A DNA stretch of 39,759 nucleotides from Minisyncoccia bacterium (GTDB lineage: Bacteria; Patescibacteriota; Minisyncoccia; Phycocordibacterales; UBA9973). The DNA is taken from the NCBI GenBank assembly GCA_038322745.1, contig JBBQGF010000003.1:1-39759 (forward strand), written 5' to 3'. Below the pieces are notes generated by a model. That model did not search any database and had not been told where the DNA came from. It was given only the letters and a program-made list of their open reading frames with translations. The position numbers and the translations under genes are program-made. Every line of letters begins with the position of its first letter. Position 1 is the first letter of the stretch. Shown here piece after piece: positions 10,892 to 39,759 of this stretch.

Positions 10892-12421
10892 ATGAGTATA
10901 ATAACAATAATAATCATATCTGTGTTGGCCCTAGTTGTAGGTGCTGGTATTGGATATTATTTGCGTCTCATTGTTTCTCTTGGTCAGAAAGGTTCTATGG
11001 AACTTGAAATCAAGAAAGTAATGTTAGCTGCAAAAGAAGACGCCCAAAAGGTCGTTGAAGAAGCAAAGAAAAAAGGTGAAGCTCATCTTATTGAGGTCAA
11101 TAAAGAAACAAAAGTCAAAGAAGAAGAGTGGAAACATACTGAAAATCGTCTAATCAAAAAAGATGAACTTCTTGATGCTCGCCAAACTGAAATTGACCGT
11201 GAAGTAGAAAAGATAAAGCTTAAAATTGAAGAGGTAAAGAAAATAAAAGAAAGAGTTGATGGAATGGAATCTGAAAAAGAAAAAGAACTCGAAAAAGTTG
11301 CTCAACTTTCTACTAATGATGCAAAAGAAATATTATTTAAAGATATTGAAGAAAAATATGAAGAAGATTTACTTGTTCGTATGCAAAAAATGGAAACTTC
11401 AAATTCTGAAAAGTTAGACCGTCGTGCAAAAGATATTTTAGCTGCCAGTATTAACCGTCTAGCATCATCAACAGCATCAGAAATGATGACAACATCAGTA
11501 AATATACCTAATGATGAAATTAAAGGTAAAATAATCGGTAAAGAAGGTAGGAACATACGTGCATTTGAAAAAGCTTCTGGAGTAGAACTAATAATAGATG
11601 AAACACCAGGTGCTATTGTTATATCCTCATTTGATCCTGTCCGCAGACAAGTTGCTCGTTTAGCACTTGAAAATCTTATCTTGGATGGCAGAATTCAACC
11701 AGCTAAAATAGAAGAAGTTGTAGCAAAAGCTCAAGAAGATATAAATAAAATAATAAAAGATAAGGGAGACCAGGCTGTATATGAATGTGGAATATTCAAT
11801 CTTGACCCACGTATTACTGCTATTGTGGGACGTTTATATTTCCGTACTTCTTATGGTCAGAATGTTCTCCAGCACTCAATAGAAATGGCTCATATATCTG
11901 GTATGTTAGCTGAAGAGCTTGGTGCTGACGTTCAGGTAGCTAAAGCTGGTGCACTTGTACATGATATAGGTAAAGCACTCGACCATGAAGTTCAAGGTAC
12001 ACACATAGATATAGGTATCAGAATACTTCAGAAATTCAAAGCAGATCCTAGAATTATAACAGCAATGAAGAGTCACCATGATGATACACCACATGAATCA
12101 ATAGAATCAGTCATTGTTCAAACAGCTGACCATATCTCAGGAGGTCGCCCAGGAGCAAGAAGAGACAGTGTGGAGAATTATATTAAGAGACTTCAAGAGT
12201 TAGAAGCACTAGCAACAAGCTTTGAGGGAGTAGAAAAGTCTTATGCCCTATCAGCAGGACGTGAAATACGTATATTCGTTACTCCTGAGAAAGTTGGAGA
12301 TGTAGCAGCAAAAGAAATGGCTCGTGATATCGCAAAGAAGATTGAACAAGAGCTCACTTATCCAGGTGAAATCAGAGTTACAGTAATAAGAGAAAATAGA
12401 ATTATAGAATACGCAAGATAA
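10892..12421 (+). CDS. rny: Ribonuclease Y
   Basis: N-terminal TM, coiled coil, KH (KGKIIGKEGRNIR), HD domain (RTSYGQNVLQHS, HDIGK). Confidence 0.97.
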   Translation: MSIITIIIISVLALVVGAGIGYYLRLIVSLGQKGSMELEIKKVMLAAKEDAQKVVEEAKKKGEAHLIEVNKETKVKEEEWKHTENRLIKKDELLDARQTEIDREVEKIKLKIEEVKKIKERVDGMESEKEKELEKVAQLSTNDAKEILFKDIEEKYEEDLLVRMQKMETSNSEKLDRRAKDILAASINRLASSTASEMMTTSVNIPNDEIKGKIIGKEGRNIRAFEKASGVELIIDETPGAIVISSFDPVRRQVARLALENLILDGRIQPAKIEEVVAKAQEDINKIIKDKGDQAVYECGIFNLDPRITAIVGRLYFRTSYGQNVLQHSIEMAHISGMLAEELGADVQVAKAGALVHDIGKALDHEVQGTHIDIGIRILQKFKADPRIITAMKSHHDDTPHESIESVIVQTADHISGGRPGARRDSVENYIKRLQELEALATSFEGVEKSYALSAGREIRIFVTPEKVGDVAAKEMARDIAKKIEQELTYPGEIRVTVIRENRIIEYAR

Positions 12422-12438
12422 TTTTATAACAACTTAGA

Positions 12439-12486
12439 AAAAAATACTGGAATTTTTAGCGAAAGCATAAAATTCCAGTATTTTTT
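12439..12486 (+). terminator. Intrinsic terminator after rny
   Basis: AAAAAATACTGGAATTTT...AAAATTCCAGTATTTTTT. Confidence 0.75.
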
Positions 12487-12653
12487 ATAATACAAACAGT
12501 ATTTATGTCAATAGTTTAAAACACTTGCACTTAAAATCGCTTGGTATATAATGTTATTACTCCTATTTATTAGGGATCGTTTGCAAACGGTCGAATATTA
12601 TTCAACTAGCACTCTCATTTTTTTTGAAAGAAAACTTTGAGACACTAAATTAA

Positions 12654-12926
12654 ATGAATAAACAAGCATTAGTAGAATTAGTTCACGAGAAAATTGGTGG
12701 TACAAAAGTACAAGCCGAAGAAGTAGTGAACGCAATGTTTGATGCTATCGTTGCTACTTTGAAAAAAGGCGGTGAAGTATCAATTGCAGGAATCGGAATC
12801 TTTTCAACAAAGGCTCGCGCAGCTCGTATGGCTCGCAACCCAAAAACTGGAGAGCAAGTAAAAGTTGCTGCAACAACTGTTCCAAAGTTTAGAGCAGCAA
12901 AAGCTCTTAAAGACGCTGTTAAATAA
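12654..12926 (+). CDS. hup: DNA-binding protein HU
   Basis: MNKQALV..., GIGIF, RAARMARNPKTGE, VPKFRAAKALKDAV. Confidence 0.96.
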   Translation: MNKQALVELVHEKIGGTKVQAEEVVNAMFDAIVATLKKGGEVSIAGIGIFSTKARAARMARNPKTGEQVKVAATTVPKFRAAKALKDAVK

Positions 12927-12963
12927 TATTTAAATTGTTTTCACAATTTCAATAATATAAAGA

Positions 12964-12996
12964 AAAAACCACTCTATTCTATCTATGAGTGGTTTT
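12964..12996. terminator. Bidirectional terminator between hup and the ZIP gene
   Basis: AAAAACCACTC...GAGTGGTTTTT. Confidence 0.65.
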
Positions 12997-13030
12997 TCTA
13001 TTTCTAAAATATTTAATACAAATTATTTAA

Positions 13031-13780
13031 TCATTCCAACAAAAGCAAGGCGAGCATAGAAATAACTCCAATCATTATTATTCCCAATTGAATAGATGAG
13101 TGTTTAATTTCTTTTGTTTTATGTAACTCCGGAATTAAATCAGCGACTGCTATATATATAAATCCCCCTGCTGCAATTGGAACAAATATAATAATAGAAT
13201 TATCGAGAATATTTCCAAAAGCATAAACAAAAAATAAGCCTAGAACAGAAGCTAAGCCAGAATAAAAGTTAAACCAAAGAGCTTTTTTATTTGTATAACC
13301 AGAATGTATTAAAACTGCAAAATCCCCTATTTCTTGAGGAATTTCATGTAAAATAACTGCAACTGTTGTAGCTATCCCAATAGGAATACTTACCAAAAAA
13401 CTGGCTCCAATTATAATTCCGTCTATAAAATTATGAAAACCATCAGTAAATAAGACTAATTTACCTACTGGGTGTATATGATTACTTTCCTTATCCTCTC
13501 CATGATGGTGCCAATGAATAAATTTTTCTAATATGAAAAAAATAATAATACCAATGATTATTAATACACCAATAATATTAGTGTTTAATCCGCTTCTGAA
13601 AGCCTCTGGAATCATATGAATGAATGCATCTCCAAGAAGCGCTCCTATCGCTAAACTAATAAAAAAATTTATATATTTCTTTAATGAATCTTCTTTAAAT
13701 AATAATGAGAAGACTCCAACAAAAGATACTAAACTTACTATAATAACTGCCCCGAACCCATATAAATAATTTATTAACAT
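13031..13780 (-). CDS. ZIP-family zinc/metal transporter
   Basis: GALLGDAFIHMIPE, His-rich loop, DGFHNFIDG, HEIPQEIGDF. Confidence 0.93.
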   Translation of the reverse strand: MLINYLYGFGAVIIVSLVSFVGVFSLLFKEDSLKKYINFFISLAIGALLGDAFIHMIPEAFRSGLNTNIIGVLIIIGIIIFFILEKFIHWHHHGEDKESNHIHPVGKLVLFTDGFHNFIDGIIIGASFLVSIPIGIATTVAVILHEIPQEIGDFAVLIHSGYTNKKALWFNFYSGLASVLGLFFVYAFGNILDNSIIIFVPIAAGGFIYIAVADLIPELHKTKEIKHSSIQLGIIMIGVISMLALLLLE

Positions 13781-13782
13781 AA

Positions 13783-14226
13783 TTAATTACAAACTCTACA
13801 AACTCCGAATAGTTCAAGTGAATGTTCTTTTATTTTTCTAAATTTCGACGATTTATTAACAATTTTTTTTAATAAAGATTCTATTTCAAAACTTTCTTTG
13901 AAATCCTCAATCATTCCGCATTTAGTACATATAATATGGTGATGATGATCATTGTTTAATTCAAAATAAGCAGAATCTTTTCTTAAATCAATTTTTTTTA
14001 AAATTTCAGCTTTTTCAAAAGATGATAATGTTCTATAAACTGTTGCTTCGTTTATATCTTTTATTTTTTTTTCTTTCAATAATTTTGTATATATTTCATT
14101 AGCAGTGAGTGGCAATTTATTCTTATAGAATATCTCCAATATAGCCATTCTTGCTGGAGTATTTTTGTACCCCTTTTCTTTCAATACATTACTCATATCA
14201 AATAAATAATTTTTAATATTCTCCAT
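13783..14226 (-). CDS. Fur-family regulator, likely Zur
   Basis: TPAR, ATVYRTL, HHHHIICTKCG, C-terminal CxxC; directly upstream of the ZIP transporter. Confidence 0.9.
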   Translation of the reverse strand: MENIKNYLFDMSNVLKEKGYKNTPARMAILEIFYKNKLPLTANEIYTKLLKEKKIKDINEATVYRTLSSFEKAEILKKIDLRKDSAYFELNNDHHHHIICTKCGMIEDFKESFEIESLLKKIVNKSSKFRKIKEHSLELFGVCRVCN

Positions 14227-14245
14227 GAAGTAAGACTATCATAAA

Positions 14246-14260
14246 TGCAAGTGACTTGCA
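14246..14260. promoter_or_regulatory. Putative Fur/Zur operator, 7-1-7 palindrome
   Basis: TGCAAGT-G-ACTTGCA, 20 bp upstream of the regulator ATG and next to a minus-strand -10 (TATGAT). Confidence 0.6.
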
Positions 14261-14341
14261 AATAGATTTGAAATTAAATACGATTGTATTAAATAGAAAA
14301 TATGTTAAGATAGATAGATTGTAATTTAATTAATTCAATAT

Positions 14342-14412
14342 CGGGGTGTAGTATATCGGTAGTATCCGTGTTTTGGGAACACGAGGGCCGGGTTCGATTC
14401 CCGGCACCCCGA
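14342..14412 (+). tRNA. tRNA-Pro(TGG), CCA not encoded
   Basis: Acceptor CGGGGTG/CACCCCG, anticodon arm CGTGT-TTTGGGA-ACACG, T arm CCGGG-TTCGATT-CCCGG. Confidence 0.95.
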
Positions 14413-14416
14413 CTAC

Positions 14417-14456
14417 AAAGAAAAATACCACTAATTAATTAGTGGTATTTTTCTTT
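14417..14456. terminator. 40-bp perfect palindrome after tRNA-Pro
   Basis: AAAGAAAAATACCACTAATT|AATTAGTGGTATTTTTCTTT. Confidence 0.75.
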
Positions 14457-14459
14457 ATT

Positions 14460-14708
14460 GTCGGGGTGAACAAGTGAACTACTTCACTTGTATCCGGGAA
14501 TCGAAAGACTTTTCAATGTTTTGGTTACAAAACCTGAAAAGTACCTGACGATGTAATCGTCGATAAGCGTACTCGCGGTTCCGGCATGGGAATCGAAAGT
14601 CTTTTGCTTATGTTTTAAAATAAATATTTTAAAACATAAGCAAAAGGGATACTGTCCTCGTAGAGGAAGATATCCCGGGGCCATCTGTATGAATTGTATC
14701 CGGGAATC
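14460..14708 (-). repeat. Structured tRNA-associated element: inverted tRNA 3'-end copy plus two hairpin/T-loop units, with 15-bp direct repeats
   Basis: GTCGGGGTG and CCGGGAATCGAA complement the tRNA-Pro 3' end; TTGTATCCGGGAATC occurs at 14488 and 14694; GGGAATCGAAAG occurs twice; 22-bp perfect stem at 14601-14646. Confidence 0.7.
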
Positions 14709-14717
14709 TAAAACTTA

Positions 14718-15935
14718 TTAATTAACAACTCTAATACTAAAAGAAGAGTTACAACTAGAAGATGAACCATTTTTTATTATAGGGTTACTACTTATATTTA
14801 ATTGTGTTGATCCTTGCTTAATTGCTTTCATTATCGTACTTTTTCCACTTACAGAAGACAAAGACACAATAGTTTGATCATCAATACTCCAAGTTACTGG
14901 ATTAAAATTACCATCAAAAAAATCAGATGATGCCAATTGAATAGTCTGACCAATTTTCAAATCTTTTATAGATGAAAAATTTTTGGGTTGATCTAGTGTA
15001 TAACATAGACCTTCTGCTATTGCATTTTTTGATCTTGAGGAATATGAATTATCTTTTCCTCCAGTAATAATATCATTAAGAGGCCCAATACATTTACTAT
15101 TGTAAACAGTATTATCACTAAAACTCTTAGAATTATTATAATTACATGTCATACTTTTATTATTCCATTCTGGTATTTGGCTTGTTAAATATGTAAATTT
15201 TACTAAACAAAAATTATCTTTATAACCTAAAATTTCACGATAAGCCTTATAATATGTTTTAGATCCTTCTATAAAAGGATTTTCATTTGGATCAAGAATA
15301 TTTATATTTTCTATTGCTAAAGAACAACTTTTAAATTGCTCTTCAATACAATCAATAGATTTTTGGTCTGACTCACTTGATCCAGGAATGGTTGTTGTTC
15401 CGCAATCAATCGGTCCATTTTTTGCTGCTACTTTATTTGTCACAATTGGAACTGTATTCGATGGTGTAGGTGTAGATATTATAGGATTTAGTGTTGTATT
15501 TACAACTGTATTTTGATTTTGTATTGGTTGATTTACTGTTTCTATTTTTGGTTCAATCGGGGCTTGTGTTGTATTTTGAGTTTCTGTTATTTCATCTATC
15601 TTTGTTTCATTTCCTCCAATATAATTTTTAATTATTGGTAATGTAGCTAAATCATTTCTAAAATAATAACCAGAAGTTCCACCTGCTAGGATAAATAAAA
15701 TTACAACAATTGGTATTATTTTTTTCCCTGAATTAATTTGTTTTATTTCTTTAGGTAAAGTTGAGTATGATGGAGAAGGATTAGCTAAAGAAATATCAGT
15801 ATTCATACTATTAAAACACTCTTCTATATCCCCTAATGTCCAACCACTAGAAAGTAAATCACTAATTATCTTTTCTTTAGTTGCACCTTTTTGTAACGAT
15901 TCCCTAGTAAAGTCTATTAATTGTTGATTTATCAT
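14718..15935 (-). CDS. Hypothetical single-pass membrane protein with C-terminal Ig-like domain
   Basis: Short helical N-terminal domain (..LLSSGW..DIEE), TM helix, Pro/Thr linker, Cys-containing domain, VTWSIDDQTIVSL...AIKQGST (Big_2-like). Confidence 0.75.
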   Translation of the reverse strand: MINQQLIDFTRESLQKGATKEKIISDLLSSGWTLGDIEECFNSMNTDISLANPSPSYSTLPKEIKQINSGKKIIPIVVILFILAGGTSGYYFRNDLATLPIIKNYIGGNETKIDEITETQNTTQAPIEPKIETVNQPIQNQNTVVNTTLNPIISTPTPSNTVPIVTNKVAAKNGPIDCGTTTIPGSSESDQKSIDCIEEQFKSCSLAIENINILDPNENPFIEGSKTYYKAYREILGYKDNFCLVKFTYLTSQIPEWNNKSMTCNYNNSKSFSDNTVYNSKCIGPLNDIITGGKDNSYSSRSKNAIAEGLCYTLDQPKNFSSIKDLKIGQTIQLASSDFFDGNFNPVTWSIDDQTIVSLSSVSGKSTIMKAIKQGSTQLNISSNPIIKNGSSSSCNSSFSIRVVN

Positions 15936-16008
15936 ATTATTTTTATTATATCATATTATATGATTACCATTTGAAATATAATCTTAAATCTGCTAGTATA
16001 TATCTACT

Positions 16009-16079
16009 GCGGGATTAGTTTATCGGTAAAATAACAGTTTTCCAAACTGTGGTGAAGGGTTCGACTCCCTTATCCCGCA
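16009..16079 (+). tRNA. tRNA-Gly(TCC)
   Basis: Acceptor GCGGGAT/ATCCCGC, anticodon arm ACAGT-TTTCCAA-ACTGT, GGTTCGACTCC T arm. Confidence 0.95.
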
Positions 16080-16091
16080 CAAATTAAGCTA

Positions 16092-16517
16092 TCATAATAT
16101 AATATTTTCTAATACCTTTACCCTGGCTTTTCTACTTTCTATATCCATATACACAACTAGCAAATCAAACTGCCAAGGTGTATTCCCTATTCTTTTATGA
16201 ATAAGATAAGTTTGAACAGTTTTAGCAAGTCGTTTTAATTTCCAAGGATGCATATTTTCTTCGGGCCTTCCAGTACTATTATCAGTTAAATTCTTATCAC
16301 TTGTTTCATATGAAACAAAATTTAGTGAAGTAATGCTTTTTGATTTAACTTCAACAAAATATAATTTTTCGTTTTTTTTAGCTATTATATCTATTTCTCC
16401 CCATTTTTTAGTATAATTTCTTTCTAAAATAGAATAACCGTGCTTAATAAGGTAATTACAAGCTATATCTTCACCTAATTCACCTATTTTTTGAGAATTT
16501 GAAGTAAATATTTTCAT
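16092..16517 (-). CDS. yraN: YraN family (UPF0102) nuclease
   Basis: GELGEDIACNYL, ILERNY, GEIDIIA, FVEVK, QFD. Confidence 0.92.
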   Translation of the reverse strand: MKIFTSNSQKIGELGEDIACNYLIKHGYSILERNYTKKWGEIDIIAKKNEKLYFVEVKSKSITSLNFVSYETSDKNLTDNSTGRPEENMHPWKLKRLAKTVQTYLIHKRIGNTPWQFDLLVVYMDIESRKARVKVLENIIL

Positions 16518-16579
16518 AATACATACATGTTACATGTGTAACAATTCTAAAAGTGTTTCACGTGAAACACTTTTAGAAT

Positions 16580-16925
16580 ATAATAGACAATTAAACTCAC
16601 TATAATACCACATAATTAAAAATAGCTATAAATACAAGGCTTTATTTGCATTAACATACACTGTGTCTCTCATTTTCATATCAATATTAATTGTCTTTTA
16701 TGAACAATACACACAGAGTTATCCACATATATCTTAATTTTCAAAGGTTTTTGTTGTGGATAAAGGACCAATAAGAGTCATATATGTTGATATTTATAAA
16801 AGACAATTGGTTAATTATTTTCAAGTTGTAATTCGTGTCAAGATATTAGAATATATTATAAATAGAATAATTATTAATATTTATATAATTAATATATAAA
16901 TATTAATCTAATTGTTTTTATACTT
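16580..16925. other. Candidate chromosomal replication origin (oriC)
   Basis: Perfect DnaA boxes TTATCCACA (16719) and TGTGGATAA (16755), an extremely AT-rich tract at ~16845-16920, and adjacent parS sites. Confidence 0.6.
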
Positions 16926-16930
16926 TTTTG

Positions 16931-17001
16931 TGCGGGGTAGGAGAATCGGACTCCTGTCTCATCCTTGGCAAGGACGTGTTCTACCACTAAACCAACCCCG
17001 C
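16931..17001 (-). tRNA. tRNA-Gly(GCC)
   Basis: Reverse complement gives GCGGGGT...CGTCC-TTGCCAA-GGATG...AGGAG-TCCGATT-CTCCT-ACCCCGC-A. Confidence 0.93.
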
Positions 17002-17134
17002 ATATTTAATTACTCTTGCAATTATAGATGTTTTTAGTAAAAATTGCAATATATATTATATCCTTTATGTACATATATTATTTACTAAAATCTAAATATA
17101 ATATACAATGATAATGTCGCAAATACATTTATTT

Positions 17135-17206
17135 GCACTCATAGTGAAATGGATATCACGACAGTCTTCGGAACTGTTATTGGGGGTTCGAATCCCTCTG
17201 GGTGCA
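17135..17206 (+). tRNA. tRNA-Arg(TCG)
   Basis: Acceptor GCACTCA/TGGGTGC, anticodon arm ACAGT-CTTCGGA-ACTGT, GGTTCGAATCC T arm. Confidence 0.93.
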
Positions 17207-17353
17207 CAAACGACAATAGAAGGAGAGCAAGCAAAGTAATTATATGTCTTATTTATGAACTTGAAAGGATTTTCTTTATCAAAAATAGAAAATCATCCGC
17301 TTAAGTAATTGAGAAAGTTATATTTACTGCTATTAATGTTTCTCGCGAAACAA

Positions 17354-18844
17354 ATGATAAATAACTCAAAAATACCAGAATACGTTACACGTGTAACAGA
17401 AACACTCGAAAAAGCAGGTTTTGAGGCTTTTCTTGTTGGTGGAGGTGTTCGTGATCTTCTTATGAGTAAAGAGCCAAAAGATTGGGATATCACAACTAAT
17501 GCTAAACCGGAACAAATAATATCTTTGTTTGAAAAAACAGTTTATGAAAATAACTTTGGAACGGTAGCTGTTTGTATTCCTAAATCTTCCATATCAAGCA
17601 CTGAAGATGTTACACATGAAACAGAATATTTCATTTTAGAGGTTACTCCATATAGAACCGAGGCTAAATATAGTGATTACAGGCATCCAGATGAAGTAAA
17701 ATTTAGTGATAACATTCAAGATGATTTAAAAAGACGAGATTTTACAATTAATGCTTTGGCATATAATCAAAATAAAGGACAAATAATAGACCTTTATAAA
17801 GGACAAGAAGATATAAAGGACAAAGTTATCCGTGCTGTTGGTAACCCTAATGACAGATTCCAAGAAGATGCGTTACGTATGCTTCGTGCTATTCGTTTCT
17901 CTACGCAGCTCGATTTTGCTGTTTCATATGAAACACTACAATCAATATCTGACAATAATGCCTTAATTAAAAACATATCATTTGAAAGAATTCGTGATGA
18001 ATTCACAAAAATCATTATGTCAGACAATCCAGTTGCTGGAATAGGACTATTACAAAAACTTGGTTTGCTTAAATCTATAATTCCTGAACTAGAAGAGGGA
18101 ATTGGTTGTATTCAAGGTGGGGCTCATATATATGATGTTTGGGAACATTTACTTCATGCTCTTGACCACTCAGCTAAAAAAGGTTGGTCTTTGGAAATCC
18201 GTCTTTCAGCTCTATTTCACGATATAGGAAAACCCCGCTCTCGTAGAAAAGGAATTAAAAAAGAATATACTTTTTATGGCCATGAGGTCATTGGAGCTAG
18301 AATGACCAAGATAATCATGGAGAGATTGAAATATCCAAAGAAAACCCAAGAACTAGTCTTGAGTTTCACGAGAAACCATATGTTCTTCTCAGATACAGAG
18401 AAAATAACACTTTCGGCTGTCAGACGTATAGTCGCTAGTGTTGGTAAGGAAAATATCTGGGAACTTATGAAAGTCCGTGAGTGCGACAGGGTAGGCATGA
18501 AAAAGGTTGAAGCTCCTATTCGTTTGCGTAAATACCACGCTATGATAGAAGAGGTGTTACACGACCCAATATCTGTAGGCCAACTTGCAATAGATGGGGA
18601 ATATATGATTAACGCATTAGAAATGAAACCTGGACCAAGAATGGGATGGATACTACATGCACTCCTTGAAGAAATATTGGATGACCCAAGTAAAAACACT
18701 AGAGAACACTTAAAAGGATTAATACAATCTTTAGAGATGCTTGGTGACATAGAACTAAAAACGTTAGGGGAAAGAGGGAAAGAAAAAAAAGAGGAAAAGG
18801 AGGAAGAAGAAGTTGCTAAATTACATAAAAAACACGGAGTTTAA
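17354..18844 (+). CDS. cca: CCA-adding tRNA nucleotidyltransferase with HD domain (start more likely ATG 17354 than TTG 17309)
   Basis: VGGGVRD, DWDITT, RRDFTINA, EDALRMLRAIRF, HDIGK; the neighbouring tRNAs lack CCA. Confidence 0.9.
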   Translation: MINNSKIPEYVTRVTETLEKAGFEAFLVGGGVRDLLMSKEPKDWDITTNAKPEQIISLFEKTVYENNFGTVAVCIPKSSISSTEDVTHETEYFILEVTPYRTEAKYSDYRHPDEVKFSDNIQDDLKRRDFTINALAYNQNKGQIIDLYKGQEDIKDKVIRAVGNPNDRFQEDALRMLRAIRFSTQLDFAVSYETLQSISDNNALIKNISFERIRDEFTKIIMSDNPVAGIGLLQKLGLLKSIIPELEEGIGCIQGGAHIYDVWEHLLHALDHSAKKGWSLEIRLSALFHDIGKPRSRRKGIKKEYTFYGHEVIGARMTKIIMERLKYPKKTQELVLSFTRNHMFFSDTEKITLSAVRRIVASVGKENIWELMKVRECDRVGMKKVEAPIRLRKYHAMIEEVLHDPISVGQLAIDGEYMINALEMKPGPRMGWILHALLEEILDDPSKNTREHLKGLIQSLEMLGDIELKTLGERGKEKKEEKEEEEVAKLHKKHGV

Positions 18845-20515: not shown

Positions 20516-21460
20516 TTATTTATCAGAATGGAACTTCTTATGTACGTCACGAAGTTGCTTGTCTGTAACATGAGTATATATTTGTGTAGTAGCAATATTG
20601 GCATGACCAAGCATCATTTGTACAGAGCGGATATCAGCACCATTTGAAAGTAAATCCGTTGCAAAAGAGTGACGAATGACGTGAGGTGTTACTTTTTTAG
20701 AAATTCCAGCTTTTATTGCATAGTATTTTACTATTCTCTCAATGGAACGGGGTGTTAATCTATTACTTTTACTACTATTTCTTGAATATTGAACAAACAT
20801 TGGTTCATCTAAGTCCTTTCTATTTTTTAAATATCCTCTTATAGCGTTTTTAGCGGAGTCTGATAAAAATACTACTCGTACTTTTTCTCCTTTACCACGA
20901 ATTGAAAATTCATCTTTTGATAAATCTAAATCTCTATTAAGAGAGCAAAGTTCAGAAAGACGAAGTCCTGTGGAGAAAAATAGTTCAAGAATAGCTTTAT
21001 CTCTTAAAATCTTTGACTGTGCAAATAAAGATACATCTTTTTCGTTAATATTAGTAATTGGGGCATTCAAAAGTCTTCCTAGTTCATCTCCAGAAATTAA
21101 ATCAAGTGAGCGTTCTTTTATTTTAGCTAGTTCTATTCGATCAGGTGGTAGGGAAGTGATAGAGCGTTTCATGAGATATTTTAAAAATGAACGTAGAGCA
21201 ATGAGATGATAGTTTTGAGTATTCTTTTTTAAAGTTCCAGATTGTTGCCCTTTAGCCTTTACTCCGGGTTGACGATTTAAATAAAGTCGGAATTCACGAA
21301 TTTTATCATCTGATATTTCTTTTGGTTCACTTATTTTAGAAAATTCAAAAAAACGACTTAAATAATGGTCATAATTATTTACAGTTTTAAGACTATTTCC
21401 TTTCTCTATTTCAACATGCTCAAGAAATTCTCTTTTAAGTTGATCTAGTTGTGTTGCCAT
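20516..21460 (-). CDS. XerC/XerD-family tyrosine recombinase (start likely ATG 21460)
   Basis: Catalytic set intact: TGLRLSEL, GKGEK, HVIRHSFAT, LGH, TQIY; N-terminal SAM-like domain. Confidence 0.92.
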   Translation of the reverse strand: MATQLDQLKREFLEHVEIEKGNSLKTVNNYDHYLSRFFEFSKISEPKEISDDKIREFRLYLNRQPGVKAKGQQSGTLKKNTQNYHLIALRSFLKYLMKRSITSLPPDRIELAKIKERSLDLISGDELGRLLNAPITNINEKDVSLFAQSKILRDKAILELFFSTGLRLSELCSLNRDLDLSKDEFSIRGKGEKVRVVFLSDSAKNAIRGYLKNRKDLDEPMFVQYSRNSSKSNRLTPRSIERIVKYYAIKAGISKKVTPHVIRHSFATDLLSNGADIRSVQMMLGHANIATTQIYTHVTDKQLRDVHKKFHSDK

Positions 21461-21597
21461 ACATATATTATACACTTTGTGTGTAAGTGTCGCAAAATAA
21501 TTGTCTAAATCAATAAAATTATTAAGCTTATATATAAATCCCTTAGTTTAATGTCTCCCTTGCATTTATCTATAATATATGCTAATATATGCGAATC

Positions 21598-25050: not shown

Positions 25051-25968
25051 ATGGATGAAAATGATAAAAAATTAAATAGTAAAACAAATTTGAAAACTCT
25101 CAGAACTTATATGTCTGATATGGCTGACACTGTTCGTTCAAATGATATTTCTGTTATTAAAGTTGCTCTCGCAGAACAGAATAAGCATGAGCGTGAAGAT
25201 TTGTACAGAAAAGTAGAGGGCTCTAGTTCAAAAAAGGCTTTTTGGATTATTGGTGGAATTATTTTGATTGGTGCTGCAATTTATGGTTCATATTTTATTT
25301 TTAAACAAAAAGCAAAAAATGATGCACCTCAACCTATGCAGAAAATTGAATCAATTATTTCCTATGATGAAATTACAAATGTTGATTTAACTGGTGCTGA
25401 AAATCTAAACGATAAATTAATTTCTATTAAAAAAGAAATTATTAAATCAAATAAAAATGGATTAATAAAATATATTCCTATCACAAAAGAAACAATGGGG
25501 GTAAAAGAAAAAGTTTTAGTAAGTAAACTTTTTTCCCTAATGGAAACTACAGCTCCTTCATCGTTAGTTCGTTCATTGTCTGATTCATATATGATGGGTG
25601 TTTATATAAAAAATCCTAGTGCAAGTATTGAAACTGATGATGGAAAACCAAATTTGTTTATGATACTAGAAACAAATGATTACGACTTCTCTTATGCGGG
25701 AATGCTAGAATGGGAAAAAACAATTGCCGGTGATATGTTTAATTTATTTGAATTTAAAACAAATGATAATAAAACTGAATTAGGGAAAAAACAGTTCAAG
25801 GATATTATAATAGATAACAAAGATGCACGTGTTCTTTATTCTGAAGATAACAAACCATTACTTTATTATATATTTACAAATAAAAGTAAAATTATTATCA
25901 CAGATAGCCAAGATGCAATTAGGGAAATATTAGGGAGATTAATTATAAAAAACATAAAACCATTGTAA
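25051..25968 (+). CDS. Hypothetical single-pass membrane protein
   Basis: 305-aa ORF with one TM helix (AFWIIGGIILIGAAIYG); no recognised domain. Confidence 0.8.
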   Translation: MDENDKKLNSKTNLKTLRTYMSDMADTVRSNDISVIKVALAEQNKHEREDLYRKVEGSSSKKAFWIIGGIILIGAAIYGSYFIFKQKAKNDAPQPMQKIESIISYDEITNVDLTGAENLNDKLISIKKEIIKSNKNGLIKYIPITKETMGVKEKVLVSKLFSLMETTAPSSLVRSLSDSYMMGVYIKNPSASIETDDGKPNLFMILETNDYDFSYAGMLEWEKTIAGDMFNLFEFKTNDNKTELGKKQFKDIIIDNKDARVLYSEDNKPLLYYIFTNKSKIIITDSQDAIREILGRLIIKNIKPL

Positions 25969-29600: not shown

Positions 29601-29630
29601 TTGACAACTTTTATACCCAAGTGGTATAAT
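29601..29630 (+). promoter_or_regulatory. Consensus sigma70 promoter, leaderless
   Basis: TTGACA-18-TATAAT with extended TG; ATG follows 6 nt after the -10. Confidence 0.75.
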
Positions 29631-29636
29631 TATGGT

Positions 29637-32600
29637 ATGAAAACAGAAAAAAAATCTCCAGATAGTCTTTATGGAGAGGACAAAGAACAAATAGAATACG
29701 ATAGATTACAACAGAAGAAAGCAGATGATCTGACAGCTAAAATTGATAATGAGTTTAATAAAAGAAATGGTAATTTGACACAAAAAGAACCATTACATAG
29801 AAAAAAGATTGAAGAAAATAGTACCGTGGATGAAATAGCCGAGATATTAAAAAATAATACAATTGATCAGATTGTAATCGCAGGTGAAAAAATCAATCTC
29901 CCAGAATCTAAAGAAAAATTACAAGGTCTGAAACCTGATTTAGACGCATATACTGCACTTTACTTATTAAATAACTATAATAAAAAATCATTAGAGGATA
30001 CTTACGGAAAATACTCAAAAACATCTATTGTTAAAAAAGATGGTACTAGTGAGGATTTTCATGGAGATAAAAATATATCTGAAAAATTAATAGAGAGAGA
30101 TGAAAGCTTTATTAATAAATATAAAAATGATGACAAAGAAAGTATTAGAGTTTTTGTAGATACAGGGGGAGAATGGCTTAAAGTTGAAAAAGAAGGAGAG
30201 ACAACAACTATTTATATTGACCATCATGGTGAAGGGAAAAGATTACCAACATCAGGAACTAAAATGATGATGGAAATTATGGAAAAAGCAGGTATTTTAA
30301 AAGAGGTTCCCTTATGGCTACACAAATTTACTGAATTTGTTAATGATATAGATAATTTATCTTATCTAGAAAAGGAGAAAAATGGCAAAAAAATATTCAA
30401 TGAAAGTTATTTTAGAAATGAGTGGCCGAACTCTATGAATGCTTTAGCAGAAAAACAAATACCTTTTGAAACTTTTCTAGAATTATGTGAGTCAGGAAAA
30501 ATAAAAGATCCAAGCAAATCATTTACAGAAGATGATTTAAATGGGGAGTTAGGTAATTATAAAATTGGAGAAAATACAATAAAAGATTTATGTAGAATTC
30601 AGAGAGAAGAAGTTAATAATACTCTAATAGGAATAAAGAATTCAATAGACCACAACACAGAAAATGGGCTTCATCTAGAAACAAAAGAATTAGGTAAAAT
30701 AATATATCATGATTATTTTAAAATAAAAGGTAAATCTAATATAATTCTTGATCATTTAGCTATGAAAGCTACTGTAGCTAAGGGTTTCAATACTTATATT
30801 TCATGGAATGAAAATAAAAAATATAAAAGATTTTTTATAAATTCAGTGGAATCAAAAAGCTTAGACGAGATAACAAAAAGATTAAATGCAGTAGATCCGG
30901 GGTGTGCACTAGAGATAAGGGGAAGTTTTATCTTTGGTAAAATAAATAATTTAACAGAGGAACAATTTTTAAACATTATTAGTCCAGACATTTTAAAAAA
31001 TGTAAAACCAAAAATTGATAAAAAAAATAAAACAATAAATACATCTGAAACTAACAAAAAAGATGAAAAAACTCCAGAAGTAATTACAGACGGGGAATTC
31101 AATAATTTTGTTGATAGTAATTTAGTTGATGAAAAAATAATAAAAGATATTGCCGAAAAACATAAAAATCAAAAACCTTTATCTACAAGGGAGGAAGCTA
31201 TTTTTAATAACAACATACAAAAAGTAGAAAAAATATTATTAGAGAAAAAAGATTTGGAAAATAAAGTAGTAAAAGAAGAAAAATCAGATACAATAACTAC
31301 TGACACAGAAACAGAGAGTGTAATAGTAAAAAATGAAACTTTAGAAGAAAAAAAAGTTATTGAAAAAACTCAAGAATCAAAAGTTGAAAAAAATTTAGAA
31401 ATAGCTAGAGAAAGATATTTTTCAGAATATACAAAATGTAAAAAAGAAGCTGATAAGCAAAATCTAATAACAAGAACAAAAAATAAAATATTGAATATTT
31501 TTCGAAGTAAAGAAAACCAAAAAGAAACTAAATTAGAAGATTTTTTTACTGAGGAATTGAATGAGCAAAAAAAAGAATATGATAAAGCTAGAATAGAAAA
31601 GGGTAATGAGATGTATTCTATTAAAAAAGCTGAGCTAGAAAAATCTGGGCTAACGGGAAAAGATTTAGATACAGCTTTAACAAAATACAAAGCAACAGAA
31701 ATTCTTTCAAAAATAATAATAGAGGAAAAACAAAAACTATTAGATATAAGAGCAGAGAGTGCTCCTGTCAAAATAGCTCTATGGAAGAAAATGTTGGATG
31801 GCTATATGAAGATAAAGCCTAGATGGAAAAGGGTTGCATTAAGTACTGCACTTTTTACTGCAGCAGCAGGAGCAGGAATAGTAACAGGTGGAATGTTTGC
31901 TGGTTATGGACTTGCAACAATGGCAGGAATGAAGTTTGGATATAGTATGGCGATAGGTGCTTTTGCTGGACATTCAGCCAAAGGAATCGATTGGGCGAAG
32001 AGCGGTGCAGATGAGAGATTTAAAAAAGAACAGAATGAAAATAAATTAAAGCTACAAGAACAATTTTCTAAAAATGAAATTAGTATTGAAAAGTACGAAG
32101 AAGGAATAGTTTCACTTGAGTTAGCAGAAAAGAAACGTGCTCGAAATCGTACTTTATTAAAAGCAGGTGTTGGTATCGCAATCGCTGGAACTGCAGGATT
32201 TATGGCATATGATGCTATGGGTCATGGTATATCACATGCTGCTGTTGATGCTACTAGCGGACCTGCAGTACCACATTTTATTTCACATGGAACTGTCGAA
32301 GCAACTGCCGATCATGGTCAAGGTGCTATTTCAACAATCAAAGAACTTCAACATAATTTAAAAGTTGAATATGGAAATAATATAGAAAATGCTCCTGCTA
32401 GTGTGAAACATATTTTAAATACTGATGCTCATAAACTAGCACAAGAATACGGCATGTATAAACCGGGTCAAGATGCAGAAAGTGTATTAATAAAATCTGG
32501 TGAGAAATTTACTGTTGATGGAAATGGAAATGTAAAATTTGAAAACACTCTTCTTGAAAAAGGAAGTGATTTAAAAGGAAGTGCAACATACGAAGGTAGA

Positions 32601-33590
32601 ATGGTTGATACAGATCATTCAGGGATGAAAACTGGTGGAAATCTTAATCAAGATACTTTAAATCAAAAAGTACTTCCCAATGAAAGCATGCAGGACTCAC
32701 TAAATAATAATGTTTCACCTTCTGAAATAAATGGTGAAACTATTATTAGTGGAGACAACACAACAGGAGTAAACCAAGACTTAATAAATAATGAGGTATT
32801 ACCTGATGGTGTTAATCAAGATATTATAAATAATAATGTTTCACCTGAAGGAATATCGACTGATCCAGGAAACTTCATTGATAACGTAGACAATTTAAAA
32901 CATTTAGATTTTCAAAATCCAGACCATGTTATATCATTAACAGATAATAATGCTTCTCTTAAGATGCAATTCCACTATGATCCAGATGGTAATGTTGATG
33001 GAGTTGACGTAGGTGGAAACACTTACAACTCAGGAGAAAATCCATATGTACTTGCTTCAGAAATACAGAAGCTAGATAATCACACACAACTAGATGCGGA
33101 TATAGATATATTTAAAATGACCTCAGAAGCTAGATTTCTAGATAAGATACCACAAGATACATATGAGTATAAATACTTATTACATGAGGTAGTAGGAAAA
33201 CAAAAAGATATAATTGAAAATTATGGAAACGTACTTAATCCTGATAAATTAGTTGGTGATGCAGCAGAAACAGTAAGTCATGTTAAAAATGCAGTCGAAA
33301 TTACATCTGAACAATTAAAATTATTGAATGACGAAAACATCCATCATTTATTTCCAGGTGAGAATGGAATGAAAATTTGGGAAAATATAAAAAATAATCC
33401 AGTTCGTACTTCTATAGATATAAAAGTAACTGATGTAGCAAAAAATTATACTGATTTTATTTCTCAGATACATAAAATTCATAATGTAACAGGACTCTCT
33501 CCAGATATAAATGAGTCAAATGGTGAATACATAATACGTGCTACAAAGTATTTAGCAGAGAAGGGAAGATTAAATGAGATTAAATTATAA
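29637..33590 (+). CDS. Large multidomain protein: DHH-like N-terminal domain, coiled coil, Gly/Ala-rich hydrophobic helices, repeat-containing C-terminus
   Basis: KPDLDA, VFVDTG, IYIDHH, SGT, DID motifs in DHH order. The ORF-track TTG start is the -35 hexamer, so ATG 29637 is preferred. Confidence 0.8.
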   Translation: MKTEKKSPDSLYGEDKEQIEYDRLQQKKADDLTAKIDNEFNKRNGNLTQKEPLHRKKIEENSTVDEIAEILKNNTIDQIVIAGEKINLPESKEKLQGLKPDLDAYTALYLLNNYNKKSLEDTYGKYSKTSIVKKDGTSEDFHGDKNISEKLIERDESFINKYKNDDKESIRVFVDTGGEWLKVEKEGETTTIYIDHHGEGKRLPTSGTKMMMEIMEKAGILKEVPLWLHKFTEFVNDIDNLSYLEKEKNGKKIFNESYFRNEWPNSMNALAEKQIPFETFLELCESGKIKDPSKSFTEDDLNGELGNYKIGENTIKDLCRIQREEVNNTLIGIKNSIDHNTENGLHLETKELGKIIYHDYFKIKGKSNIILDHLAMKATVAKGFNTYISWNENKKYKRFFINSVESKSLDEITKRLNAVDPGCALEIRGSFIFGKINNLTEEQFLNIISPDILKNVKPKIDKKNKTINTSETNKKDEKTPEVITDGEFNNFVDSNLVDEKIIKDIAEKHKNQKPLSTREEAIFNNNIQKVEKILLEKKDLENKVVKEEKSDTITTDTETESVIVKNETLEEKKVIEKTQESKVEKNLEIARERYFSEYTKCKKEADKQNLITRTKNKILNIFRSKENQKETKLEDFFTEELNEQKKEYDKARIEKGNEMYSIKKAELEKSGLTGKDLDTALTKYKATEILSKIIIEEKQKLLDIRAESAPVKIALWKKMLDGYMKIKPRWKRVALSTALFTAAAGAGIVTGGMFAGYGLATMAGMKFGYSMAIGAFAGHSAKGIDWAKSGADERFKKEQNENKLKLQEQFSKNEISIEKYEEGIVSLELAEKKRARNRTLLKAGVGIAIAGTAGFMAYDAMGHGISHAAVDATSGPAVPHFISHGTVEATADHGQGAISTIKELQHNLKVEYGNNIENAPASVKHILNTDAHKLAQEYGMYKPGQDAESVLIKSGEKFTVDGNGNVKFENTLLEKGSDLKGSATYEGRMVDTDHSGMKTGGNLNQDTLNQKVLPNESMQDSLNNNVSPSEINGETIISGDNTTGVNQDLINNEVLPDGVNQDIINNNVSPEGISTDPGNFIDNVDNLKHLDFQNPDHVISLTDNNASLKMQFHYDPDGNVDGVDVGGNTYNSGENPYVLASEIQKLDNHTQLDADIDIFKMTSEARFLDKIPQDTYEYKYLLHEVVGKQKDIIENYGNVLNPDKLVGDAAETVSHVKNAVEITSEQLKLLNDENIHHLFPGENGMKIWENIKNNPVRTSIDIKVTDVAKNYTDFISQIHKIHNVTGLSPDINESNGEYIIRATKYLAEKGRLNEIKL

Positions 33591-35945: not shown

Positions 35946-36623
35946 ATGACTAGATTAACAAAATTTACCCCAGGAGAATTTTTCCATATATACAATAGAG
36001 GTACTAATAAAATGGAAATTTTTAGTGATAATTTTGATCGTGAAAGATTTCAAAATTTACTTTATCTTGTGAATAGTAAACAAACAGTAAAATATTCTGA
36101 TTTAGAATCAAAAAAATTTAATTCAGAAATGGTATGGTTATTAGAAAGAGGGGAAACACTTGTTAATATTGGAGCATATTCACTTATGCCTAATCATTTT
36201 CATTTACTAATACAATCTAAAAATGAAAAAGATACAGCCATATTTATAAAAAGGCTTTTAATAAGTCATTCAAAGTATTTCAATAAAAAATATGACCGAT
36301 CTGGATCTTTGTTTCAAGGAAAATCTAAATCACAACACATAACAAATGATAGATATTTGAAATATATATTTTCTTATATACATTTAAATATTATTAAATT
36401 AATACAAAAAGATTGGAAAGAGACTGGAATCAGTGATATAAATATAGCACTTGAGTATTTATCAAAATATAAATACTCAAGTTATTTAGACTTTTCAGAA
36501 ATAGAAAGAATCGAATCAAAAATACTCGAGAAGACAGCATTTCCGAACTATTATTTATCTTCTGATTCTTTTAAAAAAGAAATCTTTGAATGGTTAAACT
36601 ATAATACAAATGAAAAAATATAA
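35946..36623 (+). mobile_element. REP-associated tyrosine transposase (RAYT / Y1 HUH nuclease)
   Basis: FHIYNRG, YSLMPNHFHLL (HUH), YFNKKY..SGSLFQG, YIHLN (catalytic Tyr), YKYSSY; no tnpB. Confidence 0.85.
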
Positions 36624-37737: not shown

Positions 37738-38619
37738 ATGAAGAGAGAATATTTACCTAGTAAATTATTTATGTTTGTTGTTGCTTTTATTATATTAATA
37801 CTAGCGGTAGTTTTTGGTATTACAAAATTAGTTTCCTATTTTAAAAATAAAAGTAGTAATAATGCAAAAGCCCCAAAAGCCGTTATTATACAAGACTTAG
37901 TTCAAAAAGATGCTAACAATAACGGAATAGCAGATTGGGAAGAATACCTATGGGGACTTGACCCAAATAAAAATGGTCCTGAAAATAAAGAATTTATTTT
38001 AGCCAAAAAGAAAACACTATTACAAAACGAAGACGGAACAACAAATGATAGTAATGAAAAGATTACAGAAAATGAGTCGATTTCTAGACAGTTTTTTGCG
38101 ACTATTATATCACTACAACAAACAGGAGAACTAAACCCTGAGTCTATAAAATCTGTTTCTGATTCTTTTGGAAAAAATGTTGAGAGTATTGAGATAACTG
38201 ATATTTATAACAATAGTATGATGACTATTGTAAATGATGGAACTCTAGCTAAAACAAATTACGAAAATGCGTTGACAAAACTTGTAATTAAATATCAAGA
38301 TGCAGACATAGGTAATGAATTGAACTTTATTATCCAAGGATTAAACAATAAAGACTTTGCTGCTTTATATGCAGCTAAAAGTATAGCAGAAGCATATCAA
38401 TCATTCGGGAGGGAATTCATTAAAATACCAACTCCTAGGTCTCTGATTCAAACTCATTTAAGTGCAGCAAATAATTACGAAAAAGTAGGTCAAACAATAA
38501 CAGGTCTAACTCAAGTCTTATCTGACCCTATAGTTGGTATGAGAGCAATCCAAAATTACAAAAAATACAGTGATGTACTAGGAAATGACCTTGATAAAAT
38601 TTCATTATTTTTGCAATAA
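37738..38619 (+). CDS. Membrane-anchored protein with a Ca-binding TSP3-like motif
   Basis: N-terminal TM; DANNNGIADWEEYLWGLDP motif; helical C-terminus. Confidence 0.75.
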   Translation: MKREYLPSKLFMFVVAFIILILAVVFGITKLVSYFKNKSSNNAKAPKAVIIQDLVQKDANNNGIADWEEYLWGLDPNKNGPENKEFILAKKKTLLQNEDGTTNDSNEKITENESISRQFFATIISLQQTGELNPESIKSVSDSFGKNVESIEITDIYNNSMMTIVNDGTLAKTNYENALTKLVIKYQDADIGNELNFIIQGLNNKDFAALYAAKSIAEAYQSFGREFIKIPTPRSLIQTHLSAANNYEKVGQTITGLTQVLSDPIVGMRAIQNYKKYSDVLGNDLDKISLFLQ

Positions 38620-38653: not shown

Positions 38654-39759
38654 ATGAAAAAACAAACTACTAAAAAAATAATTTCTTTTTTTATTATTTT
38701 TATTTTAATAGTGTCTGTATTTCAAAATATCCCAAGTGTAAATGCTGCGAATGAGAGCAGCATTGGGAATCTTTATTCTAATCCAAACCAGAGCAATAAA
38801 TTCTCATATAAATTTAAAATTAAAGATGTTGTTAATTCAACAATGCTTACAAATGTAGTTGGTTGTACGGGGATAGTAAATAGAGTATCAGCTTGGATGT
38901 TAAAATTTGTTCAGTCTCCATTTAAAATGGCAAAAGCTGCTGAAGAAGAATTTCAAAGAACAAAAGCTCAACTAGTAGAAGCTTGTAAAACCGTTAAAGC
39001 TGCTGAAGAAGGAGGTGCTCAAAGTATTCCAGTAATTGGAGGATTAGCACCAGCAGTTGATACAGCATTATCAAAAATCGAAGCTTGTAAATCAGATGGT
39101 ACCGTAAAAGATGATAAGGCTATTAAAGAAGCAATTGATGCTAAAACTGCAACAACTGCCAGAGATTTCAAGGAACAATGTTTTGATGGAATAGCAATAA
39201 CTCTCGCCAAAAATCAATTAACGGCCCTGACTCGTAGTGCTATGAATTGGGTAAATTCTGGATATGGTGGTAATCCATTCTTTGTTCAAAATATGCAAAA
39301 TTTGACCAATAAAATAGAGAGGAATGTAATCGAAACAGGAATAGATGTACTCTTAAATCCTGGCAACGAAAATCCGTATGCTAGAGATTTTGCTAAATCA
39401 ACAATTTATACAAAAGGAATAGTATCTAGCTCTGCTGGATTTCTCGGTGGACTCTCGTCAAGCTTAGAAAATTTCGTTACTGACCCACAATCATATTATA
39501 CAGACGAACAACTCCAGGGTGCCCAAAACACAGAAACAGCATTGCAAAAAGCAAGGAGAATGAATGATGCATTTGCAAGAGATTTCTCTCTTGGGGGGTG
39601 GAATGGGTGGCTCGCTTTAACACAAAAAGAAAACAACAATCCACTAGGTTTCAATATGGTTGCAAATCAATATTTAGCTGAAATGCAAGCAAATAAAGTA
39701 AGTGAACAAAAAAGTGAATTAGCTCAAAATAATGGATTTATGAGTCAGAAAGAATGTAT
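38654..39759 (+). CDS. Secreted hypothetical protein, partial (runs off window end)
   Basis: Not in the ORF track. MKKQTTKKIISFFIIFILIVSVF... signal peptide, open to the end; motifs WVNSGYGGNPFFV, DFSLGGWNGW, NNPLG, GFMSQKEC. TGGTATAAT lies upstream. Confidence 0.85.
   Translation, partial: MKKQTTKKIISFFIIFILIVSVFQNIPSVNAANESSIGNLYSNPNQSNKFSYKFKIKDVVNSTMLTNVVGCTGIVNRVSAWMLKFVQSPFKMAKAAEEEFQRTKAQLVEACKTVKAAEEGGAQSIPVIGGLAPAVDTALSKIEACKSDGTVKDDKAIKEAIDAKTATTARDFKEQCFDGIAITLAKNQLTALTRSAMNWVNSGYGGNPFFVQNMQNLTNKIERNVIETGIDVLLNPGNENPYARDFAKSTIYTKGIVSSSAGFLGGLSSSLENFVTDPQSYYTDEQLQGAQNTETALQKARRMNDAFARDFSLGGWNGWLALTQKENNNPLGFNMVANQYLAEMQANKVSEQKSELAQNNGFMSQKEC

Follow-up and report, generated by a model that had tools for sequence, protein, structure and literature searches.

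Behind the tRNA-Pro(TGG) gene of the window, the 39,759-nucleotide stretch analysed here (contig G000:C3 of G000, a 612-kb draft genome of 30% GC), lies a member of a family of gene-less elements of 110–250 bases that stand behind tRNA and tmRNA genes of Patescibacteria. The family is apparently undescribed; we found it neither in print nor in Rfam, and literature searches aimed at it gave no description, with subscription journals and supplements outside their coverage. We consider it probable, on balance, that these are non-autonomous mobile elements which enter tRNA genes at the T-loop in the form of folded single-stranded DNA and whose arms are templated on the target. This reading draws on features that are observed directly, namely the anatomy of the elements, the match of their arms to the neighbouring gene, conserved hairpins, a patchy, tandem and nested occurrence, the decay of arms and direct copies, and a strand bias of loop motifs.

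The copy behind tRNA-Pro

The components of the tRNA-Pro locus, and of one further family member in the window, are as follows.

14342–14413, + strand: tRNA-Pro(TGG), the target gene (ARAGORN; Rfam RF00005)
14393–14399 and 14400–14404, + strand: T-loop and 3′ strand of the T-stem of tRNA-Pro (coordinates checked)
14405–14411 and 14412–14413, + strand: acceptor 3′ strand, and discriminator plus C
14414–14459, + strand: palindromic spacer with A-tract and T-tract arms, a perfect 40-bp palindrome at 14417–14456
14460–14468, + strand: antisense copy of the acceptor 3′ strand, discriminator and C
14469–14493, + strand: H1, a 25-nt insert at the acceptor/T-stem junction of the arm, made of an A, a 9-bp stem with a CTNC loop (CTAC in this copy) and 2 nt
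14494–14505, + strand: antisense copy of the T-stem 3′ strand and the whole T-loop
14508–14542, + strand: core hairpin H2, with conserved base and variable top
14547–14561, + strand: core hairpin H3, with a GTA loop; its final C is C56 of the direct copy
14561–14586, + strand: truncated copy of the tRNA end in direct orientation, the first of two; 14561–14564 are positions 56–59, 14565–14578 a 14-nt insert (H4), and 14579–14586 positions 60–67 with one change
14588–14678, + strand: second, nested unit (family model match 14588–14675)
14588–14597, 14601–14646, 14655–14667 and 14673–14678, + strand: anti-T arm, long hairpin, GTA-loop hairpin and truncated direct copy of the nested unit
14694–14712, + strand: relic of a third arm (H1 end and anti-T arm), a 95% direct repeat of 14488–14506
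17226–17331, + strand: degenerate family member behind tRNA-Arg(TCG) (model R1, E 9e-8)

A sequence-only reading of the window had described a mirror-image copy of the tRNA-Pro 3′ end centred on a palindrome, and this description holds in all its parts: the 40-bp palindrome is perfect, 14405–14413 and 14460–14468 share its centre, the 25-nt hairpin insert with its CTAC loop is present, and 14494–14505 is the exact complement of the T arm at 14393–14404. The coordinates that it gave are correct, but it missed the direct copy of the tRNA end, and the feature, with two nested units and a relic, runs on to ~14712. The region 14340–14720 folds with a z score of −13. Judged from its shape, the spacer is likely to be a two-way terminator, and it is absent from the list returned by a simple terminator scan. 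Searching Rfam with 12000–18500 and seven further loci, only tRNA and tmRNA reach the gathering score, and below that threshold 12000–18500 gives generic hairpin matches only; no RNA dataset carrying the locus was found among those listed. An ORF of 405 aa without a Pfam match (14718–15935) lies on the opposite strand, its end 6 nt away from the element array, and the window contains three others without a Pfam match at 25051–25968 (305 aa), 29601–33590 (1329 aa) and 37738–38619 (293 aa).

The copy is not unique to this locus, as described below, and read support is present for the element part: contigs from public runs carry 14422–14592 and 14422–14565 without differences, and a contig from another study carries 14431–14834 likewise, so that this part is supported in two studies. 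The contigs break at the palindrome and none among the matches listed bridges 14414–14421, as might be expected if the assembly were at fault there; but the sequence is identical in two studies, the arms 14405–14436 and 14437–14468 are imperfect (94% complementary), with two mismatches that disfavour an assembler fold-back, and the family is present in related genomes, such that the likelihood of an assembly artefact at the palindrome is close to nil.

A family behind many tRNA genes

In G000, 14 of the 36 tRNA and tmRNA genes are followed within 170 nt by an exact antisense copy of their own T-loop and T-stem 12-mer, with 0.015 expected from random windows and none among 1248 swapped gene pairs; across the family, 81 of 149 anti-acceptors lie within one mismatch at the fixed gap, compared to 2.2 expected. 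The co-variation with tRNA identity that the sequence-only reading had predicted is thus observed. When up to two mismatches are allowed, 18 of 35 tRNAs in G000 have the copy behind them. For four congeners, in each of which 30 loci were taken from the genome's 38–42 tRNA matches, the figures are 15 of 29, 5 of 30, 8 of 29 and 9 of 34.

A family model, for which 30 of 48 clean elements were used, matches 27 places in G000 and is found in 35 of 41 related genomes. By this model 23 of 24 genomes of genus g1 are positive, and neither of the two from genus g18, which belongs to the same taxonomic family. Across the class, 30 of 151 genomes are positive, with 24 candidates scored per genome so that blanks are weak. 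One core pattern occurs in at least 121 stretches of the species collection, and among the 80 matches listed every taxon-labelled one is from Patescibacteria, bar a single 3-kb contig that is probably misbinned; 104 of 127 motif matches are no more than 400 nt behind a tRNA or tmRNA gene on the same strand. The count from a phylum-wide pattern search is itself uninformative (12 of 401 genomes, with 13 for the reversed control), but six of the eight loci inspected are true elements, from four genomes outside the class. Kin genomes within these counts are not independent.

Elements without an adjacent full tRNA are also present in G000, at C32 1471–1595, C8 200–650, C26 937–1194 and C18 258–404, with arms that fit tRNA-Asn, mixed targets, tRNA-Trp and tRNA-Ser respectively; contigs C28 and C26 overlap at their ends. 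The same genome encodes a tRNA-Ser with anticodon ACT (C17 11642–11729) and a tRNA-Ile with anticodon TAT (C24 971–1045), both of which are uncommon in bacteria.

Anatomy and conserved hairpins

The elements share a common order: tRNA end, palindromic spacer (median 40 nt), anti-acceptor, H1, anti-T arm, core and direct copy. The anti-T arm stops at the complement of T54, and a direct copy of the tRNA end, starting at C56-G57, follows the core in 119 of 191 elements. The H1 gap is exactly 25 nt in 81 of 98 cases and 22–26 nt in 96. Its position is invariably the acceptor/T-stem junction which, with every T-stem 5 bp long, is indistinguishable from a 12-nt ruler. These modules keep their order and spacing across about 30 different targets.

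H1 is paired at 97.8% with compensatory changes at all nine pairs, and the base of H2 at 100% with compensatory changes at five of eight; overall pairing is 87.9%, against 68.4% in shuffled and 34–47% in slid controls. Rows and structure were hand-chosen for this analysis, and the arm-to-copy pairs covary trivially. There are two core types, and in 10 of 191 elements the arms are contiguous without H1. On inspection the core lacks the motifs that a hammerhead ribozyme requires, and a hammerhead-like core was set aside. A rough pattern for H4, a 14-nt hairpin between positions 59 and 60 of the direct copy, matches 16 of 119 elements, and 20 of 94 elements are tandem. In genome G016 a further insert, a hairpin of ~25 nt ending CCTACTGG, recurs inside the H1, H3 and H4 loops of elements (locus L174, the L173 region and others).

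Arms match the local target and then decay

Where wobble pairs in the tRNA stem make its 5′ strand depart from a strict complement of the 3′ strand, the arm keeps to the reverse complement of the 3′ strand in 50 of 56 sites, which shows the arm to be a base-for-base inverted copy of the tRNA 3′ strand. Among T-loops other than TTCGATT the arm matches the local loop exactly in 34 of 46, a result favoured by selection of elements at two mismatches. The cores follow the target hardly at all, with a mean identity of 0.59 between elements at the same anticodon and 0.55 between those at different anticodons, core identities here and in the pairs that follow being inflated because many cores were gathered by a pattern on H2. 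Among 187 elements there are 27 core pairs at least 90% identical, of which 11 join different amino acids or tmRNA; in these 11 the targets differ at 4–9 of 19 bases, and both 12-nt arms are nonetheless exact in nine.

Carry-over of arms from a donor site is rejected, since errors in the arms do not resemble other tRNAs: 6 of 53 do so, with 7.0 expected under the null, and the direct copies used as a control give 6 of 43 with 5.3 expected. Nor do the data show foreign ends taking the place of the live tRNA end (1 of 78). There are 67 changes confined to the arm. Where the proximal and distal copies of the tRNA end differ the arm follows the distal one in none of 32 cases, a count biased by the choice of both copies for their resemblance to the proximal one, and 77 of 78 differences in the direct copy make pairing worse. 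Arm and direct copy therefore decay separately, suggesting that the arms matched the local target initially and then drifted. The bases that follow the two copies of the 3′ end are shared beyond chance (2.5 versus 1.6 nt in 74 non-tandem cases), which fits either duplication in place or relics of older, tandem units. At locus L321 (~2500–2860) the arms of the elements match another version of tRNA-Asp than the live gene upstream.

These data bear on the possibility that the unit from anti-acceptor to direct copy encodes a small tRNA-like RNA, similar to RtT or mascRNA. Such an RNA would have an acceptor stem of 7 bp, a T-stem of 5 bp and one hairpin at the side and would be excised by RNase P with trimming of its 3′ end, and the unit would spread by duplication and conversion. 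H1 does occupy the place that is the branch point of the D and anticodon arms in a tRNA, the arm can pair with the direct copy (71.5% and 91.0% in the two helices), and the hairpins covary. A maintained RNA is nonetheless hard to reconcile with arms that never follow the distal copy, selection-biased as that comparison is, with distal changes that are nearly all destabilizing, and with the wobble sites, at which the arm copies the 3′ strand and not the 5′ strand of the tRNA; furthermore the direct copy is truncated at the tRNA-Pro locus, and there is no match to RtT or another Rfam family at gathering score. We regard this explanation as unlikely.

Filled and empty sites

The tRNA-Pro(TGG) locus could be compared in 20 congeners (two more at contig ends were dropped), of which 11 are filled and nine are empty; the filled sites carry several core subtypes, and one congener with an identical tRNA-Pro has an empty site. 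Some copies, pushed away by other insertions, are 0.7–2.7 kb from their tRNA, or the locus shows no tRNA upstream of them. In two close genomes (L005 and L008) the tRNA-Pro loci contain the same two tandem cores with their two spacers in swapped order, reflecting either recombination or assembly. We also note a short conserved peptide tail of the LEWNTIE type at G000:C26 ~800–900 and twice at L041, encoded on the reverse strand immediately ahead of a displaced tRNA-Trp remnant; it may be a terminal piece that was separated from an island recombinase.

A by-product of host repair or replication would not require a mobile unit at all: fold-back template switching at tRNA terminators would make the mirror, and H1, H4 and the cores would insert independently into looped single strands. 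Two reports describe how template switching homogenizes the arms of inverted repeats (PMC8604942, PMC5941160), and the arms without H1, the two core types, the further hairpin that enters loops in G016 and the trailer bases shared beyond chance could all be accommodated in this manner. However, it does not readily account for generic modules in fixed order and spacing at so many targets, for the one-step pattern of filled and empty sites, or for the narrow taxonomic range, and the shared trailer is equally explicable as the relic of an older tandem unit; as a full account we judge it quite unlikely.

Candidate enzymes and vehicles

The recombinase-type genes of G000 are one tyrosine recombinase, two Y1 proteins and two serine recombinases, and no reverse transcriptase match was found. 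The only PF00589 gene is in the window at 20516–21475, XerC/D-sized and 6 kb from the element; a tyrosine recombinase also lies within ~10 kb of tRNA-Pro in several congeners. Across the 41 genomes tyrosine recombinases are found in 37, serine recombinases in 25 and reverse transcriptases in 16, and none tracks element presence: the Xer gene is also present in all six genomes without a model match, and reverse transcriptases were not found in G000, G016 or G024, all of which are element-rich. The single Xer-like tyrosine recombinase is no more than a candidate, and the only one present in nearly all hosts.

No autonomous full-length version was found in 462 tRNA loci, and no recombinase-sized common cargo was seen between the tRNA and a far direct copy in them; seven intervals contain ORFs, which by eye are mutually unlike, and the cargo-bearing intervals have the appearance of other islands by which an element was pushed aside. 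We find no element in IMG/VR (four patterns; three matches attributable to chance), INPHARED or PLSDB, and therefore see no vehicle or circle. Two RAYT-like Y1 genes, at 35946–36623 of the window and ~38660–39330 of G000:C2, are each accompanied by their own REP-like palindrome; these flanking palindromes are unrelated to the element, and a RAYT link was set aside.

The elements could alternatively be attachment-site remnants of ordinary islands, integrated by tRNA-specific integrases or serine recombinases and since stripped of their genes. The sequence-only reading had held that the attachment-site model does not fit; it was right as to the inverted, hairpin-interrupted copy, but a direct copy of the tRNA 3′ end does follow the core in most elements, and here as well, truncated, at 14561–14586. 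PMC4383910 describes a direct copy that begins in the T-loop as the signature of islands, and many of the large serine recombinases end in antisense tRNA: in 13 of 25 loci viewed (L300, L301, L304–L306, L309, L310, L313, L315–L318 and L320) the C-terminus is encoded by sequence antisense to a tRNA gene. PMC4383910 names only tyrosine recombinases as known to target tRNA genes. Against such remnants are the cores, which are hardly tRNA-specific, the overlap left of position 60, which is mostly 0, 3 or 4 nt and not the whole loop, and the recombinase loci themselves, since among the 25 viewed those that abut a tRNA begin without palindrome or arm. In one of the 25, L321, elements lie between the serine recombinase gene and the tRNA. 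We place little belief in the remnant explanation and consider it highly unlikely.

Strand bias and folding

GCGNAGC loops occur 34 times on the tRNA-sense strand of the 191 elements and never on the antisense strand, and YGTAR shows a bias of 185 to 59 in the same direction; the tRNA-Pro copy has no GCGNAGC loop and contains GTA loops only. GCGNAGC mini-hairpins are described in PMC13037366 as unusually stable and far more so in DNA than in RNA, a related tetraloop melting at 39 °C as RNA and at 76.5 °C as DNA. Together the bias and the stability of such loops in DNA suggest that the tRNA-sense strand folded as a single DNA strand. Standard DNA energies, which ignore the mini-hairpin stability, are equal for the two strands (−66.7 and −66.2). 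The minus strand has no closed T-stem, and with the GCGNAGC loops all on the other strand the earlier suggestion that the opposite strand makes a tRNA mimic finds little favour.

In a read-through transcript at equilibrium the acceptor-stem pair probability is 0.0, and it is ~1.0 when the RNA ends at the palindrome, so that the likely terminator role of the spacer is important. It is this loss that makes conceivable a cis-acting anti-tRNA attenuator, also suggested in the earlier reading, in which read-through would sequester the acceptor and T arm and lower tRNA output, and about half of the G000 tRNAs carry an arm. But a maintained attenuator should not have arms that decay alone, nor be missing from 9 of 20 congeners at tRNA-Pro; the displaced copies lie kilobases from a tRNA or lack one upstream, the L321 arms match a version of tRNA-Asp other than that of the live gene, and the direct copy, tandem units and nesting are left unexplained. 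We therefore think an attenuator very unlikely.

A proposed mechanism of insertion

Of the suggestions made from the sequence alone, the scar of a fold-back insertion that targets tRNAs gains most, from arms that match their own neighbour and from near-identical cores at different tRNAs. In the insertion that we propose, the tRNA-sense strand would fold as DNA and an enzyme supplied in trans would join the element at C56-G57 of the T-loop, resulting in an intact tRNA and a displaced direct copy. The target would serve as template for the arms during insertion, or fold-back template switching would correct them against it soon afterwards; H1 and the core, looped out in the process, would be kept. 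The palindromic spacer would stop tRNA transcription before the arm, rendering the insertion harmless.

A bolder version, to which we give appreciably less credence and which we offer as a tentative possibility, is that of mobile DNA which retargets itself. A generic hairpin scaffold of single-stranded DNA would recognize the universal T-loop, copy the sequence of any tRNA gene encountered into its guide arm, and thereby colonize most tRNA and tmRNA genes of a genome via a borrowed host enzyme; as DNA, the folded unit would mimic a tRNA's upper half. If true, target specificity would be copied from the target and not fixed in a protein or guide RNA, the insertion chemistry would be new and possibly of use as a programmable integration tool, and much of the non-coding sequence next to tRNA genes in these highly reduced genomes would be explained (18 of 35 tRNAs in G000).

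Comparison with known systems

The RtT repeats of E. coli tyrT (RF00391) are tandem units behind a tRNA at a single locus, with a copy of its 3′ end as their last part, and we know of no inverted copy in them. The elements resemble them in tandem units, size and 3′-end copy, but have no Rfam match, occupy many loci and carry the inverted copy. Integron attC sites are strand-specific folded DNA with extrahelical features and a variable central part, and they occur in arrays; the elements resemble them in these respects, the strand-specific DNA fold being a proposed one, but their junctions carry T-loop sequence and not GTTRRRY, and their arms match a host gene. We found no IntI, and the sole PF00589 gene of G000 is classed by its size alone, as XerC/D-like. 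REP/RAYT and IS200/IS605 systems employ small hairpin modules, and REPs are not known to copy a target; similarities include small hairpins with GTA- or GTAG-like words, nesting and a plausible single-strand chemistry, but both Y1 genes of G000 are flanked by unrelated palindromes and not by the element. Unlike what a tRNA-primed retroelement would leave, the arm mirrors the genomic trailer and not the mature CCA end, and only 16 of 41 genomes have a reverse transcriptase.

The casposon of Aciduliprofundum boonei is like the elements in targeting the T-loop region of a tRNA-Pro gene, with target duplication (PMC5137440). It is however large and autonomous with terminal inverted repeats of its own, its 15-bp duplication is mostly downstream of the gene, and it is not known to have an inverted target copy (PMC5137440). 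Casposons carry casposase and polymerase genes; the elements are gene-less and their ends are target copies. A closer parallel is CTX phage, whose folded attP(+) is recombined by host XerCD and whose single-strand integration leaves a direct and an inverted site (PMC3089051). In both systems two inverted target-like sites fold into a forked hairpin, and a restored target is accompanied by direct and inverted relics; CTX borrows a host enzyme (PMC3089051), as we propose for the elements. They differ in that the elements target the T-loop of a tRNA, which does not resemble dif as given in PMC3089051, in their ~30 targets, and in having no phage genes.

Islands in tRNA and tmRNA genes, as compiled by Islander, use subsites at the T-loop and at the T/acceptor junction (PMC4383910), and the displaced tRNA fragment is an island feature also in 10.1101/2020.11.02.365908. 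Like islands, the elements restore the target, leave a displaced 3′ fragment as a direct repeat, form tandem arrays and use the T-loop subsite (PMC4383910); unlike them, they are only 110–250 bp, have no integrase gene, contain an inverted target copy with a fixed hairpin, and place one core lineage at many tRNAs, as the 11 near-identical pairs at different targets attest. By the description in PMC4383910 Islander rejects tRNA fragments in the wrong orientation, and island finders that discard inverted fragments have a blind spot for elements of this kind. While the mechanism itself is one that we infer, the architecture fails a defining feature of each of the systems compared.
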